From an uncultured Candidatus Saccharibacteria bacterium (GTDB lineage Bacteria > Patescibacteriota > Minisyncoccia > Phycocordibacterales > DATGWK01): a stretch of 64,000 bases of DNA. Positions 3,281-45,689 of this stretch are shown here, one piece after another (positions within the stretch are counted from its first letter, which is position 1; the number at the start of each line of letters is the position of its first letter). Made by a program: the position numbers and the translations under genes. The DNA is taken from NCBI GenBank assembly GCA_964428845.1, contig CAYRZH010000001.1:204445-268444 (forward strand), written 5' to 3'. The notes beneath the pieces were generated by a model. The model saw only the letters and a program-made list of their open reading frames with translations. It did no database searches and had not been told where the DNA came from.

Positions 3281-3964
3281 ATGGGGAATAGCGGGCCAAA
3301 ACCAAAAGGCAAAATAAAGATTAAATGGTCCTCAAATTTTGCCTATGCCATTGGGCTTATTGCCACAGACGGAAACCTTTCTCCAAGTGGTCGTCATATA
3401 GTCTTTACATCTAAGGACTTTGAACAAATAAATAATTTCAAGAAGATTCTACGTTTAACAAATAAAATAGGGAAAAAGGGAAATGGTAGTAGTAAGGAGA
3501 AAAAATATTATGTCTTGCAATTTGGAGACGTCCTATTTTATTCATTTCTCGGGAAAATAGGCATATCTCCTGCAAAATCCAAAACCATAGGCCCTATTCA
3601 AGTTCCAGATAAATTCTTTTTTGATTTTCTAAGGGGATGTTTTGATGGCGATGGGTGCAGTTATAGTTATTGGGATAAGCGTTGGAAATCCAGCTTTCTT
3701 TTCTATATTTCCCTAGCTTCCGCGAGCGAACCTTTTATTTCTTGGGTTAGAAAAAAAGTAAAGCAGTTTGTGGGCGTATCTGGCCACGTTAGCAAACTAA
3801 AAAATGCTTCAGGTTTTCAATTGAGATATGCAAAAAACGATGCAAAGAAGATTGTTTATGAAATGTACAGAAAACCTAATAGTGTTTTCTTGAAAAGGAA
3901 AAAGTTGAAAATCAACAGATCTTTGGCTATTATGAGCCAATTCCCCAAAAGACGACTAAAGTGA
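3281..3964 (+). CDS. LAGLIDADG homing endonuclease, free-standing, very AT-rich
   Basis: Two LAGLIDADG motifs: YAIGLIATDGNL and FLRGCFDGDGCS. Own promoter-like TTGAGG-17-TACAAT lies upstream. The gene ends 16 nt before tRNA-Leu. Confidence 0.8.
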   Translation: MGNSGPKPKGKIKIKWSSNFAYAIGLIATDGNLSPSGRHIVFTSKDFEQINNFKKILRLTNKIGKKGNGSSKEKKYYVLQFGDVLFYSFLGKIGISPAKSKTIGPIQVPDKFFFDFLRGCFDGDGCSYSYWDKRWKSSFLFYISLASASEPFISWVRKKVKQFVGVSGHVSKLKNASGFQLRYAKNDAKKIVYEMYRKPNSVFLKRKKLKINRSLAIMSQFPKRRLK

Positions 3965-4676: not shown

Positions 4677-4751
4677 TCATTAGAGAAAACTGTCCTTGTA
4701 TCTGATTCGGCAAGTGCCCAACCAGGTCCATTCAATTGAAAGGAGTAAGCC

Positions 4752-5399
4752 GTGGGTATCGGGACAAATATTTTCGGCTCTTTTCTCACATTGAATTTGG
4801 CAAATCGTCGCCGGCGGGGAATGGCTATGTTCGGACACAAAAAGCCTGATTCAGCCGCACGTATTTTGGGTAGGGGAACGACCGACCGCTTCAAACTCAT
4901 CGACGAGTTCGAGGTCGTCGTGCCGATGGATTATGTTCACGCCACCTGTCTCTCTGATCTTGCGAGGGATTTCGGACACATGATCTCCCCTTTTTACCCT
5001 GTATTGACTGACGACAACTACAGAAACGTGACGACCCGCATGGAGCCAGGGGAAAGATTTGTGGCAAAGATTTTTCACATTGTTGGGCTGGAAACTTCTT
5101 TTGCCTGTCTGGGTTTGCTTGATCGGGAGAGAGCCATTCTGGCCGGGGCCCAGGGGCTGGCTCTCGTTTTTCGGGTGGCGAAGGACAGACTACCTCCCGA
5201 TCTCTGGACAGTTTCTTTCGACAGACCAGACGCATTGTTCTTCGATAGCCACAACGGCTGTCACCGGGTGCCGACCATTGGGCCATCCAGACAAAATCCC
5301 GGCAAGGGAGAGTTCCACTCCGGCTTCTTTGAACCCTTCGAGGGGGATAAGGGTTGGGATGCTCGCTTCTGTCTTCTCTGTCTTGTTCGTCAAGGGTAG
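4752..5399 (+). CDS. Uncharacterized protein, family member P2 (G+C-rich cassette gene)
   Basis: GTG start 6 nt after AAAGGAG. Core FEVVVPMDYVHAT...YPVLTDDNYRNVTTRMEPGERFVAKIFHIVGLETS...AILAGAQGLAL...LWTVSFDRPDAL ... FCLLCL aligns with P3. Confidence 0.5.
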   Translation: MGIGTNIFGSFLTLNLANRRRRGMAMFGHKKPDSAARILGRGTTDRFKLIDEFEVVVPMDYVHATCLSDLARDFGHMISPFYPVLTDDNYRNVTTRMEPGERFVAKIFHIVGLETSFACLGLLDRERAILAGAQGLALVFRVAKDRLPPDLWTVSFDRPDALFFDSHNGCHRVPTIGPSRQNPGKGEFHSGFFEPFEGDKGWDARFCLLCLVRQG

Positions 5400-6581: not shown

Positions 6582-6633
6582 GGGCGTCATCGCAGGGGGG
6601 CAGAATGCCACCCTTTTTTCTTAGCCAAAATAG

Positions 6634-6765
6634 TATTTATGGACACGACGGGAGTTGAACCCGCAGTATTTAGTTGGTAAAACAAAATACCTAAACCGTT
6701 AGCGTGCCCATGACGCGATATACCACTCCGCGCCTAGGCAGACTCTAACAAAGACACATTCAAAT
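6634..6765. repeat. 132-bp direct repeat, copy 1 (tRNA/tmRNA-3'-end-like: reverse strand reads GCGGGTTCAACTCCCGTCGTGTCCA)
   Basis: 130/132 identical to 8095-8226. Contains a T-arm-like GGGTTCAACTCCC and a D-arm-like GAGTGGTATAT. Confidence 0.7.
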
Positions 6766-6901
6766 ATTTATTAAGTATACCCACCCCTCATCCCACCGCC
6801 AATCTTTCTGGATTTTTGTGACAGTTTGGTTCTTGTAGTTAGTGTTCGGTAAACAGTTAATGCAGCTTGTACCCCCCATTTTCCTAGGGTATAATTTCCT
6901 T

Positions 6902-7973: not shown

Positions 7974-8094
7974 GGGTGGTTTTTTATAATGTGATAGAAT
8001 TTTTTGCTGGGGCTAGAGCAACAAGATGTGGATTTTTACGCAGAATTGGAGGTTTATTATTCTCGGGTATAGCGACTTTCCTTCTCGTATAGAA

Positions 8095-8226
8095 TATTTA
8101 TGAACACGACGGGAGTTGAACCCGCAGTATTTAGTTGGTAAAACAAAATACCTAAACCGTTAGCGTGCCCATGACGCGATATACCACTCCGCGTCTAGGC
8201 AGACTCTAACAAAGACACATTCAAAT
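8095..8226. repeat. 132-bp direct repeat, copy 2
   Basis: 130/132 identical to 6634-6765. Followed by a bidirectional terminator CCGCCTCGAAAGGCGG at ~8248-8270. Confidence 0.7.
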
Positions 8227-8517
8227 CTTTTTTAAGAAAAGATAAATACAAAAACCGCCTCGAAAGGCGGCTTTTGCGATATTCTGTCTTACCAACCTCT
8301 GAATTATATATAACTCTCTCTCACTGTCAAAAAAAGACCGCCCCTTCCCGACGGTTTTTCTGGGACCCAAACTCACCAATATGAAAAATATGCAAAAATA
8401 TTCTCTTCCGACAATTGGGGGAAGGTAATTTGACAAATCTGTAAAATAGTGTAAACTCCCGTCCAGAACATTCGTGGCTTGTGGCCACAATAGCCGATCT
8501 TTCAATGGAGAACATGG

Positions 8518-39816: not shown

Positions 39817-41226
39817 ATGGAAGACAAGAAGAAAAAGGGAAAGGCTGGCAGCGTCAGTGAAGGAAGACCAGACTCCGGCGGCGAAAATAGCGGAAAAATG
39901 GAAAAAATAATCTCTCTTGCTAAAAGGCGCGGCTTTATCTACCAAGGTTCGGAAATATACGGTGGCTTGGCCGGTACCTGGGACTACGGACCACTGGGCG
40001 TGGCACTCAAGAATAATATAAAGAATTTGTGGTGGAAAAGGTTCGTGAGCGACCGGGAGGATATGTATGGAGTGGATACCGCTATCCTCATGAACCAGAA
40101 AGTTTGGAAGGCTACCAAGCATACAGAGGTTTTCGCAGATCCGATGGTGGAGTGTAAGAAATGCAAGCACCAGTTCAGGGGTGATCAGGTAGAAGGGAAT
40201 AAGTGTCAGGACTGCGGTGGGATGCTCGGAGAAGTGAAGACGTTTAACACAATGTTCAAAACCCACGTCGGCGCGTCAGAAGATGCTGCCGCCACTTCCT
40301 ACCTTCGCCCCGAGACCGCACAGGGCATGTTTGTAAATTTTAAAAATGTCGTCGACTCATTTCACCCGAAGCTTCCGTTTGGCCTCGCACAAACAGGGAA
40401 GGCTTTTAGGAACGAAATAGCTCCACGCGACTTTCTCTTTCGAGCCCGCGAGTTTGAGCAAATGGAAATAGAATATTTTATCCGAGCGGGCGAATGGGAA
40501 AAATATTTTGAGTACTGGAAAACTGAAATGATCTCATGGTTTGAGCAACTTGGAGTCGCTCGTGGCACTGTGCACGAGCTTGAGGTGCCAGCAGAAGATC
40601 GGGCGCACTACTCGGAACGCACTATTGATTTTGAATTCGACTTCCCGTTTGGAAAAAAAGAACTAGCCGGCCTTGCCTACAGGACCGACTTCGATCTTAA
40701 AAACCATGCTTCGGCTAGTGGTGTGGACCTGTCGTATTTTGATGAGGAGACGAAGGAGAGATTTACTCCTCATGTTATTGAACCTACATTTGGTCTCGAC
40801 AGACTTATTCTTGCCATTTTCTCGAGTGCTTACAGTGAAGATGACTTGGGTGGAGAAAAAGCAGATATGAAGGAAGAAGTGGCCGACAAAATTGAGAAAG
40901 CCGAGAAACGTGTTTTTCTGAAACTCGCACCCGCAGTCGCCCCTGTGCGTGTTGCAGTTTTTCCTTTACTTAAAAATAAGCCGCAACTAGTCGAGAAGGC
41001 TCGCGAAGTTTACGGTATGCTCAAAAAAGAAATTTCAGGAGCCGTAGTTTTTGACGACAACGGCAACATCGGCAAGCGCTACAGAAGGCAGGATGAGATC
41101 GGCACGCCGCATTGTGTCACTATAGATTTTGATACTTTAGAAAATGACACGGTCACACTCCGCGATCGTGATACGGGGAAGCAGGAGAGGGTGGAGGTAA
41201 AAGAGCTCAAAAAAGCTTTACTTTAG
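39817..41226 (+). CDS. glyQS: Glycyl-tRNA synthetase (class II, dimeric alpha2 type)
   Basis: FRNEIAPRDFLFRAREFEQMEIEYF motif 2; 469 aa. Confidence 0.9.
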   Translation: MEDKKKKGKAGSVSEGRPDSGGENSGKMEKIISLAKRRGFIYQGSEIYGGLAGTWDYGPLGVALKNNIKNLWWKRFVSDREDMYGVDTAILMNQKVWKATKHTEVFADPMVECKKCKHQFRGDQVEGNKCQDCGGMLGEVKTFNTMFKTHVGASEDAAATSYLRPETAQGMFVNFKNVVDSFHPKLPFGLAQTGKAFRNEIAPRDFLFRAREFEQMEIEYFIRAGEWEKYFEYWKTEMISWFEQLGVARGTVHELEVPAEDRAHYSERTIDFEFDFPFGKKELAGLAYRTDFDLKNHASASGVDLSYFDEETKERFTPHVIEPTFGLDRLILAIFSSAYSEDDLGGEKADMKEEVADKIEKAEKRVFLKLAPAVAPVRVAVFPLLKNKPQLVEKAREVYGMLKKEISGAVVFDDNGNIGKRYRRQDEIGTPHCVTIDFDTLENDTVTLRDRDTGKQERVEVKELKKALL

Positions 41227-41252
41227 GGCATATTTCTTCTGCAGCGCTACTA

Positions 41253-41282
41253 TTGACTCGAGCACCGTTTGTATGATATAAT
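41253..41282 (+). promoter_or_regulatory. Promoter TTGACT-18-(TG)TATAAT of P3, followed by a conserved structured leader (stem GCACAG..CTGTGC, then GCTTC-TTCG-GAAGC just upstream of the SD)
   Basis: Promoter plus leader are ~85% identical to 42880-42990 upstream of P4. Confidence 0.45.
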
Positions 41283-41366
41283 TTCGCACAGAAAGAGTAT
41301 GGCACTGTGCTGTATTCTAGTTCTCTGAACCGCTTCTTCGGAAGCACAGCAAGAAAGGAAAATGTC

Positions 41367-42071
41367 ATGAGCGCGAAACGCGTGTGTGACATGAGCCCAA
41401 GAAACGTGTGTGACATGAGCTGTGGGGCGATGCATGAGTTTGCATTGGCCCTCGACAAGGCCGGTTTTACCGCTAGTCTTGTACAACAGGTCATCAACTC
41501 GGGTGGCAACAAGCTCGCGAGAGCAATGCGTGCTGCTCTCACAACAGGAGTCGTGGTGGATGACCGGTTCGAACTGGTCGACTCCTTCGATGTCGTTGTG
41601 CCCGACGGCTACGACCACGCAACCCGTTTGGGGACGTTCTGGAGAGAACACGGCGAAGAGTTCGATTGCTACAACCCCTCCATCACCGACGAGAACTACA
41701 GCGGAGCGACAAACAAACTCGTCCCTGGTCGGGGGTTCAGGGTGAAGGTTTTCCAGATCAGGGGGGTCGTGTCATCCGACGATTGCCTGGCTCACCTGCG
41801 TTCGCAGAAGGCTGTACTTGTTGGCGCCCAAGGTGCGAGTCTTGCCTACGAACAGGGCAAGAACATGCTACCAGTCAACCGGTGGTCAGTCTCCTTCGAT
41901 GATAAGGATGCGCTTTTGGAAGACCCCAGTGGCTGGCATTGGGTGCCGGACGTGCTCCGCCACTCGGACGGTAGCTTCAGGTTCAATCTTGGTCAGTTCG
42001 AGTTAAACTGGAACGACGGCTTCTGCCTTCTCTGCTTCTGCGGCTTTGAGCCCGAGTCCTCTGGCGCCTAG
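41367..42071 (+). CDS. Uncharacterized protein, family member P3 (G+C-rich cassette gene)
   Basis: FDVVVPDGYDHAT...YNPSITDENYSGATNKLVPGRGFRVKVFQIRGVVSSDDCLAHL...AVLVGAQGASL...RWSVSFDDKDAL...FCLLCF. Tandem 16-nt duplication near the N-terminus (VCDMS x2). Confidence 0.5.
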   Translation: MSAKRVCDMSPRNVCDMSCGAMHEFALALDKAGFTASLVQQVINSGGNKLARAMRAALTTGVVVDDRFELVDSFDVVVPDGYDHATRLGTFWREHGEEFDCYNPSITDENYSGATNKLVPGRGFRVKVFQIRGVVSSDDCLAHLRSQKAVLVGAQGASLAYEQGKNMLPVNRWSVSFDDKDALLEDPSGWHWVPDVLRHSDGSFRFNLGQFELNWNDGFCLLCFCGFEPESSGA

Positions 42072-42086
42072 GCCGCTCGAAGCCTT

Positions 42087-42800
42087 CTTCGAACCCATAA
42101 CCCTTAGACCCTCAATCCCCAGTTTGCCAAACGGCAGGCTGGGGATTTTCTTTTACGGGAAACCAACATTATCTGTAAAACCTATAAGCCCTTGACTTTT
42201 TATATAATTATGCTAAGATCCAGGCAGAAATCAGCGGCGAAATGGTGTTCAGAGTAGCCACATAAACAAGATCTTTCAAGGGAGAAGTGTCATGAATAGC
42301 CTCTCGTGTCGTCGGGGTTTCTCGTTTGTCGAGCGTGTGATCGTGATCATCATTGCTTGCATCCTGGTATCGATCGTCATTTCGCGCTTCGGGCCCAACG
42401 GCCCGGCGCCGCAGGTGATGGTTACCACCCCGAGCGGTGAGGAGGCGGAAGTCAAGGTCGGCGAGATCATTATGGTGACCTTGAGGAGAGGCAAAGGCCT
42501 CAGCTATCACCTCGAAGAGGGGACCTACCTGATCAGTGCGATCGAGTACAATGGAGTGAACTGGGAAGTTGGTCTCCGCAAACTCGGGAAACCCGGATTC
42601 CCCAGACTCACTTACTTTCTGAGTGACTATGTGTTCAAGAAGGAGACGAGTACCTATATCTGGGTTCAGGTGATCGAACCCACTGATCCGCAGTACAAAG
42701 ATCTCATGGTCGAGTTCGCCAAGGGGGGTGGTAAGTAGGAAGAAGGGAGTGTGACACAAGTCGCCGACCATGGGGTTGGCGATTTTCTTTATCCATCCAT
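42087..42800. repeat. Copy A of a ~715-bp 100%-identical direct repeat (terminator + prepilin-like gene); part of a 1.6-kb tandem duplication
   Basis: Identical to 43684-44398 at an offset of ~1598 bp. Begins with a strong terminator (12-bp stem CCCCAGTTTGCC-AAAC-GGCAGGCTGGGG + ATTTTCTTTT). Confidence 0.85.
42292..42738 (+). CDS. Prepilin-type N-terminal cleavage/methylation-domain protein (pseudopilin-like), copy A
   Basis: RRG|FSFVERVIVIIIACILVSIV matches G-F-x-x-x-E with hydrophobic helix; 148 aa. Confidence 0.5.
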   Translation: MNSLSCRRGFSFVERVIVIIIACILVSIVISRFGPNGPAPQVMVTTPSGEEAEVKVGEIIMVTLRRGKGLSYHLEEGTYLISAIEYNGVNWEVGLRKLGKPGFPRLTYFLSDYVFKKETSTYIWVQVIEPTDPQYKDLMVEFAKGGGK

Positions 42801-42822
42801 TTCTTTATGCCGCACTCTCTTC

Positions 42823-42870
42823 ATGAAATTTAATAAAAAGATACTAAAGAGTGGTTTGCGTCTCATTACT
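42823..42870 (+). pseudogene. Duplicated 5' fragment of the M16 peptidase gene (MKFNKKILKSGLRLIT) left at the duplication junction. It runs in-frame through the P4 promoter/leader.
   Basis: Near-identical to the N-terminus of the intact gene at 44421. Confidence 0.55.
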
Positions 42871-42879
42871 GCGCTACTA

Positions 42880-42909
42880 TTGACTTGTGTACCATTCGTA
42901 TTATATAAT
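42880..42909 (+). promoter_or_regulatory. Promoter TTGACT-18-TATAAT of P4 plus the conserved structured leader
   Basis: Paralogous to 41253-41366. Confidence 0.45.
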
Positions 42910-42990
42910 CTCGCGCAGAAAGAGTATGGCACTGTGCTGTATTCTAGTTCCCTCAAACCGCTTCTTCGGAAGCAAAGGAAGGAAATGCCC

Positions 42991-43698
42991 ATGAGTAGTG
43001 GGAATGTCCGACTGATCACGTCTGGTCAAAAGTTCGAATTAGCGGCGGCGCTCGTCAAGGCGGTTCCGGAATTAGATTCGATGCCATTTGAGACTGCCCG
43101 GCGATGGATCGGCGATCAGAAGGCTATTGCCTGCGCCCTGTCGCAGGCTCTCATGCCGGCCGAGGTCGTTGGGGCACAGAAGACTATCCTCCGTCTGATT
43201 CCCGGTGCCGAGGCTCTCACCCTCGGACCCACCGACGGCCAGGCAACGATCGCAGAGTCAAGGGGCGTCTTCAACAACGTCGACCCCGGCTTCACGACCT
43301 GGGGAACAAACGTCCCCGGAGTCGCCACCGGGGAGATCGCTGTCTCTGTCTACGAATTGGTTGCAGACGCTTCCTTCGAGCAGATGTTCGGGTCGCTCCC
43401 CGCACGCCTCGGCGCGCTCTGTCTCACACAGGCTCAAATCATCAAGTTCGTACTAACACGCCAGCGTCACCTCCGCACCGACGGCTACGCCACGTTCTTC
43501 CTTTTCGAAGTGGGAAGCGAGTTTTTCGTCGCGCACGTGTACCTGCCCGCCGGTGGCGACCCCCATGTGCACTTCTACCGCCTCTCGGGCGCCTTCGGCT
43601 GGCACCGCGAGCACCGCCATCGCATCGTGGTTCCGCAACTCACCCCTGCCCGTCCCGGAATCCTGCCCCCAGCTCGATTCTCTGCTTCGAACCCATAA
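42991..43698 (+). CDS. Uncharacterized protein, divergent family member P4 (G+C-rich cassette gene)
   Basis: SD AAAGGAAGGAA 8 nt upstream. Retains only parts of the family core (FNNVDPGFTTWGTNVPGVATGEIAVSVYEL vs YNPSITDENY...LVPGRGFRVKVFQI). The C-terminus runs into repeat B. Confidence 0.4.
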   Translation: MSSGNVRLITSGQKFELAAALVKAVPELDSMPFETARRWIGDQKAIACALSQALMPAEVVGAQKTILRLIPGAEALTLGPTDGQATIAESRGVFNNVDPGFTTWGTNVPGVATGEIAVSVYELVADASFEQMFGSLPARLGALCLTQAQIIKFVLTRQRHLRTDGYATFFLFEVGSEFFVAHVYLPAGGDPHVHFYRLSGAFGWHREHRHRIVVPQLTPARPGILPPARFSASNP

Positions 43699-44398
43699 CC
43701 TTTAGACCCTCAATCCCCAGTTTGCCAAACGGCAGGCTGGGGATTTTCTTTTACGGGAAACCAACATTATCTGTAAAACCTATAAGCCCTTGACTTTTTA
43801 TATAATTATGCTAAGATCCAGGCAGAAATCAGCGGCGAAATGGTGTTCAGAGTAGCCACATAAACAAGATCTTTCAAGGGAGAAGTGTCATGAATAGCCT
43901 CTCGTGTCGTCGGGGTTTCTCGTTTGTCGAGCGTGTGATCGTGATCATCATTGCTTGCATCCTGGTATCGATCGTCATTTCGCGCTTCGGGCCCAACGGC
44001 CCGGCGCCGCAGGTGATGGTTACCACCCCGAGCGGTGAGGAGGCGGAAGTCAAGGTCGGCGAGATCATTATGGTGACCTTGAGGAGAGGCAAAGGCCTCA
44101 GCTATCACCTCGAAGAGGGGACCTACCTGATCAGTGCGATCGAGTACAATGGAGTGAACTGGGAAGTTGGTCTCCGCAAACTCGGGAAACCCGGATTCCC
44201 CAGACTCACTTACTTTCTGAGTGACTATGTGTTCAAGAAGGAGACGAGTACCTATATCTGGGTTCAGGTGATCGAACCCACTGATCCGCAGTACAAAGAT
44301 CTCATGGTCGAGTTCGCCAAGGGGGGTGGTAAGTAGGAAGAAGGGAGTGTGACACAAGTCGCCGACCATGGGGTTGGCGATTTTCTTTCTCCCTATCT
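43684..44398. repeat. Copy B of the ~715-bp identical direct repeat
   Basis: See copy A. Confidence 0.85.
43890..44336 (+). CDS. Prepilin-like protein, copy B (identical to copy A)
   Basis: Identical ORF translation. Confidence 0.5.
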   Translation: MNSLSCRRGFSFVERVIVIIIACILVSIVISRFGPNGPAPQVMVTTPSGEEAEVKVGEIIMVTLRRGKGLSYHLEEGTYLISAIEYNGVNWEVGLRKLGKPGFPRLTYFLSDYVFKKETSTYIWVQVIEPTDPQYKDLMVEFAKGGGK

Positions 44399-44420
44399 CC
44401 CTTTATGCTACACTCCCTTC

Positions 44421-45689
44421 ATGAAATTTAATAAAAAAACTTTGAAAAGTGGCCTGCGTCTCATTACTGTGCCACTCAAAGACAGTCCTGCTGTCACAGT
44501 ATTGGTGATGGTTGAGGCCGGTTCAAAATATGAGACCAAGGAGATAAATGGACTTTCACATTTCCTCGAGCACATGTGCTTCAAGGGGACAAAGAAACGC
44601 CCCAACTCCATAGACATAAGTCGCGAGCTCGACTCTATCGGTGCCCAATATAATGCATTTACTTCTCAAGAGTACACTGGCTACTATGCGAAGGCTCATC
44701 CCAAGCATTTAGCAAAAATCCTCGACGTTATCTCCGATATGTATCTCGATCCTGTTTTCGATAGTCGTGAGATAGAAAAAGAAAAAGGAGTAATCGTGGA
44801 AGAGATAAATATGTATGAGGATATGCCCCAGCGCCACGTCCACGACATTTTTATGGAGCTTCTGTACGGCGACACTCCTGCTGGTTGGAACATTGCCGGG
44901 ACTCGCCAGCGGGTCAAAGCTATGACCCAGAAACATTTTATTGACTATCGCTCCAAACACTATGTGGGGAAGGGAACTGCGGTGATCGTTGCCGGAAGCT
45001 TCGATGAAAAAAAACTTGCAAAAGATGTCGAAAAAGCTTTTGAGAAAATCAGCACAGCAAAAAAGCATTCGAAGATAAAAGTTGCAGAGAAGCAAAAAGA
45101 ACCGAAAGTATTTATAAAAGACAAAAAGACAGACCAGACCCATCTAGTTCTCGGCGTGCGGGCTTTCGATATTTTCAATAAAGATATTGCCAAGCTGAAG
45201 GTTTTAAGTGCCGTGCTTGGTAGTGGCATGAGCTCGAGGCTATTTCAGAAACTGCGCGACGAAATGGGTGTCGGATATTATGTGAGATCTGGTAGCGACG
45301 AATACACCGACCACGGCTATCTAGCTGTCTCTACGGGCGTCGACAAGTCACGTGTTGTGGAAGTTATTAAAGCTATTCTAGAAGAATTTAGGAGACTCAC
45401 CCGCGAGACCGTTCCACCAGCCGAGCTTGCGAAAGCCAAAGAATATCTTGTCGGTAACATGTATTTGGGCTTGGAATCTTCTGATGCACTCGCCGAATTT
45501 TATGGTTTTCAAGAAATTTTAAAACATAAAAATGAAACTCCCGCCGAAATTGCAAAGCAGATCGAGAAAGTGACAGCACAAGATGTGAAAAATATAGCAA
45601 AAAAAATATTCAAAAATCAGTCTCTAAATCTTGCACTTATCGGTGAGATAAAGGATAAAAAAGATCTTTCCAGATCATTTCGTCTTTAA
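44421..45689 (+). CDS. M16-family zinc metallopeptidase (insulinase/pitrilysin-like)
   Basis: HFLEHMCFKGT inverted zinc-binding motif HxxEH. Confidence 0.8.
   Translation: MKFNKKTLKSGLRLITVPLKDSPAVTVLVMVEAGSKYETKEINGLSHFLEHMCFKGTKKRPNSIDISRELDSIGAQYNAFTSQEYTGYYAKAHPKHLAKILDVISDMYLDPVFDSREIEKEKGVIVEEINMYEDMPQRHVHDIFMELLYGDTPAGWNIAGTRQRVKAMTQKHFIDYRSKHYVGKGTAVIVAGSFDEKKLAKDVEKAFEKISTAKKHSKIKVAEKQKEPKVFIKDKKTDQTHLVLGVRAFDIFNKDIAKLKVLSAVLGSGMSSRLFQKLRDEMGVGYYVRSGSDEYTDHGYLAVSTGVDKSRVVEVIKAILEEFRRLTRETVPPAELAKAKEYLVGNMYLGLESSDALAEFYGFQEILKHKNETPAEIAKQIEKVTAQDVKNIAKKIFKNQSLNLALIGEIKDKKDLSRSFRL

Follow-up and report, generated by a model that had tools for sequence, protein, structure and literature searches.

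A duplicated promoter-leader, probably forming simple hairpins, precedes two genes for predicted diversity-generating retroelement variable proteins in a Saccharibacteria contig

Two tandem units with a duplicated promoter and leader

A stretch of 64,000 nt from contig CAYRZH010000001.1 of an uncultured Candidatus Saccharibacteria bacterium was analyzed (the window; all positions refer to it). It contains two copies of a near-consensus promoter followed by an 81-84 nt leader, at 41244-41366 and 42871-42990, which were 85% identical. Copy A precedes gene A and copy B precedes gene B. The feature is real and beyond chance: a promoter-leader duplicated on two variable-protein genes of the type diversified by diversity-generating retroelements (DGRs), with an RNA that probably forms simple hairpins. 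An earlier note on the window had regarded the leader as a candidate cis-regulatory RNA.

The two units form a tandem array that is flanked on the left by a class II aminoacyl-tRNA synthetase gene and on the right by an M16 peptidase gene. Each unit consists of promoter and leader, variable-protein gene, intrinsic terminator, second promoter, a gene for a 148-aa prepilin-type protein and a second terminator. Since a terminator lies behind each of the genes A and B, each is its own transcription unit. The features are as follows:

39817-41226: glycyl/class II tRNA synthetase gene, left array boundary
41253-41282, + strand: promoter of gene A, TTGACT, 18-nt spacer, TATAAT, with upstream TG; 11 of 12 consensus matches
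41283-41366, + strand: leader copy A, non-coding, predicted transcription start near 41289; the start codon at 41367 is set by homologue alignment
41355-41359, + strand: Shine-Dalgarno sequence AAGGA of copy A, 7 nt 5' of the ATG
41367-42071, + strand: gene A, 234 aa, predicted DGR variable-protein family A, variable region at about 41904-42068
42114-42147, + strand: intrinsic terminator 3' of gene A, within the 99.9% identical block
42087-42790, + strand: 704-nt block with terminator, promoter, 148-aa prepilin-type gene (42292-42738) and second terminator
42791-42870, + strand: M16 peptidase remnant (promoter and first ~16 codons) at the junction of the units
42880-42909, + strand: promoter of gene B, TTGACT, 18-nt spacer, TATAAT; 11 of 12 consensus matches
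42910-42990, + strand: leader copy B, with hairpins at 42921-42945 and 42960-42973 and the Shine-Dalgarno sequence at 42979-42983
42991-43698, + strand: gene B, 235 aa, predicted DGR variable-protein family B, variable region at about 43516-43644
43685-44388, + strand: second copy of the 704-nt block, prepilin-type gene at 43890-44336
44421-45689, + strand: intact M16 peptidase gene, right array boundary

In a global alignment of the two copies, 106 of 125 columns were identical for promoter and leader together and 73 of 86 for the leader alone. A repeat search of the window returned an 86-nt direct repeat (41244-41329 and 42871-42956, 88% identity). The 25-mer AGAGTATGGCACTGTGCTGTATTCT from the core of this repeat occurs exactly twice in the window, while shuffled sequences give an expectation of zero. 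Perfect identity extends over runs of 35 nt (41289-41323) and 19 nt (41328-41346). The leader sequences given in the earlier note were found at their positions, duplicated and non-coding, together with the motifs named there: GCACAG (41286-41291) or GCGCAG (42913-42918), followed by AAAGAGTATGGCA and CTGTGC, then TATTCTAGTTC(T/C)CT, and GCTTC-TTCG-GAAGC at 41332-41345 and 42960-42973. The reported leaders are indeed repeated, but the repeat begins about 40 nt further upstream and takes in the promoter. Likewise, the tetraloop hairpin does lie upstream of the Shine-Dalgarno sequence AAGGA, but not directly, as 9 nt in copy A and 5 nt in copy B separate the two.

An indel of 1 nt between the copies shifts the reading frame of the leader, and the homologues of gene A begin at residues encoded from the ATG at 41367. 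The leader is therefore non-coding. In none of the annotated homologues did the N-terminal extension match the translation of this leader. The deposited protein models run through the leader, with 254 aa from 41307 and 291 aa from an ATG at 42823 in the peptidase remnant. These models, P0002 and P0122 (41307-42071 and 42823-43698), start too far 5', and the one beginning at 42823 reads across promoter and leader.

Outside the leaders, the blocks 42087-42790 and 43685-44388, each of which starts just past the stop codon of its variable-protein gene and runs to the second terminator, were identical at 703 of 704 positions. The peptidase remnant (42791-42870) showed 77.5% identity to 44389-44468. 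The G+C content of the genes A and B was 57-63%, versus about 45% in the flanks. Each unit opens with GCGCTACT, which is similar to the peptidase sequence GTGCCACT at the right junction of the array. The array, with junctions at 41244, 42871 and 44468, may have arisen by unequal crossover, by insertion or by conversion, or it may be an assembly join.

Genes A and B belong to two unrelated families of variable proteins

BLASTP detected no similarity between gene A and gene B. Each has its own homologues at 40-70% identity, and the two families are unrelated. For gene A, 171 BLASTP matches in Patescibacteria were obtained (best non-self match 71% identity), and for gene B 162 (best non-self match 51%). 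In the earlier note, conservation of the leader next to coding sequences that had "diverged completely" was taken as a sign of function. Since A and B come from separate Patescibacteria families and are not diverged copies of one gene, this argument fails. The pattern of a conserved leader before different genes reflects modular recombination, not differential selection.

Among the 55 loci of family A, a DGR reverse transcriptase gene was present 1-1.5 kb downstream in 28, and in 25 the last ~40 residues recurred ~350 nt downstream as an Asn-rich near-copy. Such a copy of the C-terminus is characteristic of a template repeat. In one family A locus (L137), bAvd and RVT_1 were called. Of the 80 family B loci, 32 contained a reverse transcriptase gene and 25 a template-repeat copy, and the alignment of this family showed the expected hypervariable C-terminus. 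Judged by this context of their homologues, A and B are predicted DGR variable proteins. The 64-kb window itself contained neither a reverse transcriptase gene nor a template-repeat-like copy, so that, as far as the window shows, A and B are remote or orphaned targets.

A direct repeat of 160 nt (6616-6775 and 8077-8236, 93% identity, 1461 nt apart) was considered as a template repeat and rejected, as it is tmRNA- or tRNA-like instead. On the minus strand it gave a partial tmRNA match of 30.5 bits (6637-6709) and a weak tRNA match (8101-8170), and ARAGORN called no gene in the 160-nt repeats. A possible explanation is an island that integrated at a tmRNA- or tRNA-like gene and has the two repeats as its duplicated ends. 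The N-terminus of gene A (41367-41440) carries a short internal duplication, RVCDMS-PRN-VCDMS, without counterpart in its homologues.

The 148-aa genes at 42292-42738 and 43890-44336 are identical, and each lies behind a variable-protein gene. Their product passed the prepilin N-terminal model TIGR02532 with 16.6 bits (cutoff 16.3) and has the N-terminus RRG|FSFVE. In a set of 5.8 billion proteins, no homologue was found other than the protein itself. The pairing of these prepilin-type genes with variable-protein genes hints at a link between pili and hypervariable proteins. The annotation thus changes from two hypothetical genes to two DGR-type variable proteins, each paired with a prepilin-type gene.

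Known DGR target elements include IMH (initiation of mutagenic homing) and a hairpin/cruciform 3' of the variable region, as described by Guo et al. (2011; PMC3240598). The leader resembles these in being tied to DGR variable-protein genes and in containing a short GC-rich hairpin. The elements described there differ in lying at the 3' end of the variable region and in acting at the DNA level in retrohoming, whereas the leader is located ~540 nt 5' of the variable region. An inverted repeat TCGAAG-CCTT-CTTCGA (42075-42095) is found immediately past the stop codon of gene A, and the 99.9% identical block starts in its 3' arm; it might be a hairpin of the kind that DGR targets have 3' of the variable region.

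Predicted fold of the leader

RNAfold returned the same two hairpins in all four constructs. According to these models, the leader RNA most likely folds into hairpins at 41294-41318 and 41332-41345. The predicted elements, and the stem proposed in the earlier note, are as follows:

41294-41318, + strand: 5'-proximal hairpin AGAGUAUGGCA-CUG-UGCUGUAUUCU, 11 bp, identical in both copies; -11.1 kcal/mol, pair probability 0.98
41332-41345, + strand: tetraloop hairpin GCUUC-UUCG-GAAGC, 5 bp; -6.6 kcal/mol, pair probability 0.99
41286-41310, + strand: hairpin GCACAG-13 nt-CTGTGC of the earlier note, disfavoured, beginning 3 nt past the -10 element; -7.6 kcal/mol

The 11-bp hairpin, with its equivalent in copy B at 42921-42945, had pair probabilities of 0.98-0.998 across the copies. 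It begins 11 nt past the -10 element, where the range in related leaders is 5-16 nt. The GCTTC-TTCG-GAAGC hairpin, already described in the earlier note, proved robust in both copies, with pair probabilities in the same range. The GCACAG/CTGTGC stem and the 11-bp hairpin are mutually exclusive, and the former was outcompeted (-7.6 versus -11.1 kcal/mol; pair probability ≤0.008 versus ≥0.98). Because this stem begins 3 nt past the -10 element, transcripts initiated at the usual spacing would lack half of its 5' arm. The A-to-G change in that arm, which had been put forward as keeping the pairing through a G-U wobble, may sit at or before the predicted +1. It is weak evidence for an RNA structure, since the stem is disfavoured and likely cut by the transcription start.

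No terminator-like site was found within the leader, and the UUCG hairpin is followed by ACAGCAAG without a U-run. The sole pairing of the Shine-Dalgarno sequence in the folds comprised 4 bp, between UUCU or UUCC and GGAA in the minimum-free-energy folds. The idea that a helix masking the Shine-Dalgarno sequence had undergone a compensatory change from U-A to C-G was rejected, as the two predicted helices occupy different alignment columns.

Distribution of the differences between the copies

The leader core (41289-41345) differed between the copies in 3 of 58 columns. In the promoter, the -35 and -10 hexamers were identical and the spacer differed at 6 of 18 positions. The core thus changed less than the promoter spacer (Fisher p=0.004) and less than the peptidase remnant (18/80, p=0.007), which bears out the conservation of the leader claimed in the earlier note. 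The differences clustered in two regions, the promoter spacer and the surroundings of the Shine-Dalgarno site. This pattern fits purifying selection on the promoter hexamers and the leader. With two copies only, selection is not separable from recency.

The studied leader in sequence and RNA family databases

An exact 20-mer from the core had 0 matches in each of the viral, genome and metagenome contig collections. When the two-copy leader served as query in blastn-short and nhmmer, first against 55 and later against 138 loci with homologues of A or B, only chance matches were obtained. Homologous leaders, whose absence elsewhere had been named in the earlier note as speaking against its proposal, were thus found nowhere at the sequence level in these searches. 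A scan of the whole window against Rfam at the gathering threshold detected rRNA and tRNAs only.

The leader itself matched no Rfam family at threshold. The best match, in E-value mode, was PhotoRC-I (RF01716), with 27.7 bits at 42927-42973 and 24.4 bits at 41300-41345, both below the gathering score of 45. This family is a candidate cis-regulatory motif found 5' of psbA in cyanobacteria/cyanophage and marine samples (PMC2864571). Like the leader, it lies in a 5' untranslated region (5' UTR) and contains GGCA...UCC, AAACCG and a 5-bp stem closed by CUUCGG. Taxon and downstream gene differ, the match consists mostly of a generic UUCG hairpin, and the first helix of the model conflicts with the 11-bp hairpin. 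As the score was below 45 and the downstream genes encode predicted DGR variable proteins in another taxon and gene context, an assignment of the leader to PhotoRC-I was rejected.

Structured leaders of homologous genes in other Patescibacteria

Leaders of the homologous genes in other Patescibacteria showed the same build, in which a consensus promoter is followed by a 5'-terminal hairpin, another hairpin and a Shine-Dalgarno sequence, and their stems covaried strongly. At least three covarying or recurrent classes (types A, X and Y) were seen in addition to private variants. None of them is in Rfam: types A, X and Y gave no Rfam match, and a search of 25 related loci in E-value mode gave no match at any leader.

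In type A leaders, the promoter is followed by a hairpin, GA, CUGA, a second hairpin with GCAG as closing pair and loop, AGCACAUUG and the Shine-Dalgarno sequence. One form reads GCAAG-loop-CTTGC, GA, CTGA, TYCGG-CAGATTT-CCGRA, AGCACATTG (loci L004-L052; L033:2731-2777, L030:2731-2777). The first hairpin begins at a median of 7 nt past the -10 element, i.e., at the 5' end of the transcript. A covariance model built from nine seeds found about 20 members, all directly 5' of family A genes; one type A member precedes a family B gene. Over 25 sequences, 94.9% of cells were paired and 9 of 10 pairs had changed on both sides; the alignment was fitted to the model, so that these covariation figures are somewhat inflated. 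Among the controls, 0 of 500 shuffles were as good, and slid controls reached 21-59%. Compensatory changes in the stems were visible in the raw sequences, too. The window contains a type A copy at 4685-4745 (full-length profile, E=2.9e-4), 5' of a third paralogous variable-protein gene at 4752-5399.

Type X is a leader with a long hairpin, UUCGCCACAGC...GCUGUGGCGAA, located 5' of many family B genes. RNAalifold predicted 21 pairs, 13 of which were compensatory. In the window, the leader at 777-833 (window stretch 775-833), 5' of the gene at 893-1495 (P1), matched the type X profile with E=6e-9. The structured P1 leader described in the earlier note is thus a type X hairpin, though located at 777-826 rather than 756-810. 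Further members were seen in L061, L072, L130, L133, L062, L074, L096, L108, L122, L126 and other loci, and some members have a downstream CCAC as a possible alternative partner for GUGG of the 3' arm. Type Y, GGCAAGUCUGGGG-hairpin-GAGGGACGAGCCAAA, is found just before the Shine-Dalgarno sequence of other family B genes (L093, L099, L105, L110, L117, L082, L087, L068, L127, L130), within the ~60 nt that precede the start codon.

In another genome (L044), two tandem family A genes share a module of promoter and 5' hairpin (2700-2796 and 3560-3656), an organization like that of the window. Its stems differ by a compensatory A-U to G-C change (GACTAG/CTAGTC versus GGCTAG/CTAGCT). In a subfamily whose proteins start with MNTIID (L033, L035, L007, L030, L041, L036), the start codon is predicted to be completely paired with codons 4-6 in a hairpin (CGAUGA...UCAUCG).

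The studied leader was compared to these classes. It shows the placement of type A, with a consensus promoter, a hairpin at a distance from the -10 element inside the type A range and a family A gene downstream. With type A it shares the order promoter, hairpin, linker, hairpin and A-rich Shine-Dalgarno sequence before a family A gene, as well as CUGA 5' of the second hairpin (copy A only), GGAAGCACA 3' of it, and AAGAAAGGA. The leader of the closest homologue of gene A (71% amino acid identity) has GGAAGCACA, AAGAAAGGA and GTCATG in common with copy A. The first hairpin differs from type A in sequence and size, the linker measures 6-14 nt versus 2, and the GCAG loop is absent. The invariants of type A are lacking, as copy A has CUGA but the loop CUUCUU/UUCG, and copy B has CUCA. 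An assignment to type A was rejected because the covariance model gave 2.5-2.7 bits (E about 3 in an unfiltered search of 1.9 kb), while true members scored 15-69 bits. Type X was rejected as well, since its nhmmer profile matched only the P1 leader and nothing at 41283 or 42910. The studied leader is therefore taken to be a private variant built on a shared architecture rather than a proven member of one of the classes.

Function of the leader

Stable hairpins at the 5' terminus that stabilize transcripts are known from the 5' UTR of Escherichia coli ompA and the Bacillus subtilis aprE leader. The leader studied here resembles these in combining a stable hairpin near the predicted 5' end with a strong promoter, a monocistronic transcript and an accessible ribosome-binding site. 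In addition, related Patescibacteria leaders keep the structure by covariation while the stem sequence changes. It differs in that the hairpin begins ~5 nt from the predicted +1 and not at +1. The reading with the best support is that the leader would be a constitutive cis-acting element setting mRNA stability or translation; it draws on the position of the hairpins, on the relatives, in which the structure at the 5' end of the transcript is kept although the stem sequence is not, and on the analogy to ompA and aprE. We hold this reading tentatively, with a probability of roughly 45%. The leader would be part of an expression module, composed of a near-consensus sigma-70-type promoter, the ~78-nt leader and AAGGA, placed on two unrelated genes. 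In this module, the 5'-proximal hairpin, ~5 nt from the predicted 5' end, would shield the message from 5'-end-dependent nucleases, and the UUCG hairpin would frame or delimit the ribosome-binding region. Together, both hairpins could give interchangeable variable-protein genes the same strong expression. The conserved leader is re-read here as a shared expression module rather than a sensor.

Several points weigh against a constitutive stabilizing leader. First, no homologue of the studied leader was present in the three public collections or the 138 related loci. The type A covariance model failed to recognize it, and its 3' half scored 8.2 bits (copy A) and 5.7 bits (copy B) against the type A profile, which is about what a generic Shine-Dalgarno sequence yields (nhmmer E-values, window-wide, of 0.16 and 1). 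Second, the folding energy is ordinary (z = -0.3 to -1.7), and the copies do not differ in either predicted hairpin, so that the window gives no covariation test. The transcription start (~41289, 7 nt past the -10 element) rests on prediction, and we infer the role as stabilizer by analogy with ompA- or aprE-type 5' hairpins. Third, the accessibility of the Shine-Dalgarno sequence was heterogeneous across the related leaders; a common mechanism of Shine-Dalgarno sequestration was rejected on this ground, and no shared translational switch is apparent. Fourth, exchange or gene conversion, which the 99.9% identical block indicates to be active, could explain the perfect identity runs without selection on the RNA.

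The last point leads to a passive role, in which the leaders are similar merely through recent duplication, gene conversion or the assembly of the array from strain variants and have no function beyond promoter and Shine-Dalgarno sequence. This explanation is possible, if on the doubtful side. The near-identity of the 704-nt block in the same repeat unit fits it, as do the different gene families between conserved flanks, by which recombination is seen to have shaped the locus. The ordinary folding z-scores, the lack of leader homologues elsewhere and the number of copies, which leaves selection and recency confounded, are also compatible with it. It does not account for the non-uniform distribution of the differences, which spare -35, -10 and the hairpin region (p=0.004-0.007). 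Moreover, ~700 nt of non-homologous gene sequence separate the module from the 99.9% identical block. Finally, leaders of homologous genes elsewhere keep their hairpins by compensatory changes, and thus leader structure matters for this class of genes.

A riboswitch or attenuator, as had been suggested in the earlier note, is not supported: no terminator-like site, ordinary z-scores and no Rfam family at threshold were found. An expression platform for such a switch was not seen, with no terminator-like site and only 4 bp of Shine-Dalgarno pairing. A conserved aptamer with covariation across genomes was not detected in the viral, genome and metagenome collections or the 138 related loci. In the wider sense of a responsive cis-RNA, including a protein or small RNA (sRNA) site, the leader would switch between the two exclusive 5' hairpins, or its CU-rich GUUCUCU/GUUCCCU would mask the Shine-Dalgarno sequence. 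Two mutually exclusive hairpins do share CUGUGC, UUCU/UUCC can pair with GGAA of the Shine-Dalgarno sequence in the minimum-free-energy folds, and the perfectly conserved loops and linkers would fit sequence-specific recognition; the PhotoRC-I resemblance (27.7 and 24.4 bits) is in line with such an RNA, but remains far under the gathering score and concerns another taxon and gene context. The alternative hairpin, with a probability of ≤0.008, is moreover cut by the likely transcription start, and the masking helix of 4 bp occurs in different registers in copies A and B. Since the leader comprises two short hairpins and no multi-helix junction, lacks a terminator-like element and is not conserved across the genomes searched, a responsive RNA is regarded as improbable.

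We consider an element acting at the DNA level slightly less probable still. GCACAG-N13-CTGTGC could be an operator for a dimeric repressor, and as an inverted repeat from -1 to +22, counted from the predicted start, it has a typical operator position; in copy B, though, the half-sites are no longer alike owing to the A-to-G change. Alternatively, the module could serve as a homology arm or recombination site for cassette exchange. The variable genes lie exactly between conserved flanks, the right identity block starts in the 3' arm of the hairpin past the stop codon of gene A, and both units open with the sequence that resembles the peptidase gene at the right junction. Homologous recombination, however, requires no specific site, and no recombinase, integrase or regulator gene adjoins the array. 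In addition, the stems of related leaders covary with G-U pairs in the sense strand only, which points to RNA rather than double-stranded DNA.

Translation of an upstream open reading frame is very unlikely. An ATG at 41300 encodes MALCCILVL* in copy A, and in copy B the corresponding ATG (42927) opens a frame of 22 codons that ends in a TGA overlapping the ATG of gene B. The first 8 codons lie within the perfectly conserved run, and the ATGA overlap of copy B is a classic arrangement for coupling. However, the purine-rich AAGAG is separated from the upstream ATG by 1 nt, a poor spacing for a Shine-Dalgarno sequence, and this ATG lies within the 11-bp hairpin. Peptide length and C-terminus differ wholly between the copies through the indel, and related leaders have no equivalent.

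Leader classes of variable-protein genes in Patescibacteria

To our knowledge, almost nothing is known about gene regulation in Patescibacteria. Beyond the expression module proposed for genes A and B, the more interesting outcome is the presence of uncatalogued covarying leader classes before hypervariable-protein genes across these bacteria. It is conceivable, although we rate it as rather unlikely, that DGR variable-protein genes of Patescibacteria have a dedicated set of modular 5' leaders which travel as promoter-leader cassettes and could be specific regulatory RNAs. If so, the leaders, e.g., bound by a DGR- or pilus-linked factor, would coordinate the expression of hypervariable proteins. 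As the leaders are compact and easily synthesized, they offer practical experimental entry points for the ultrasmall Patescibacteria.

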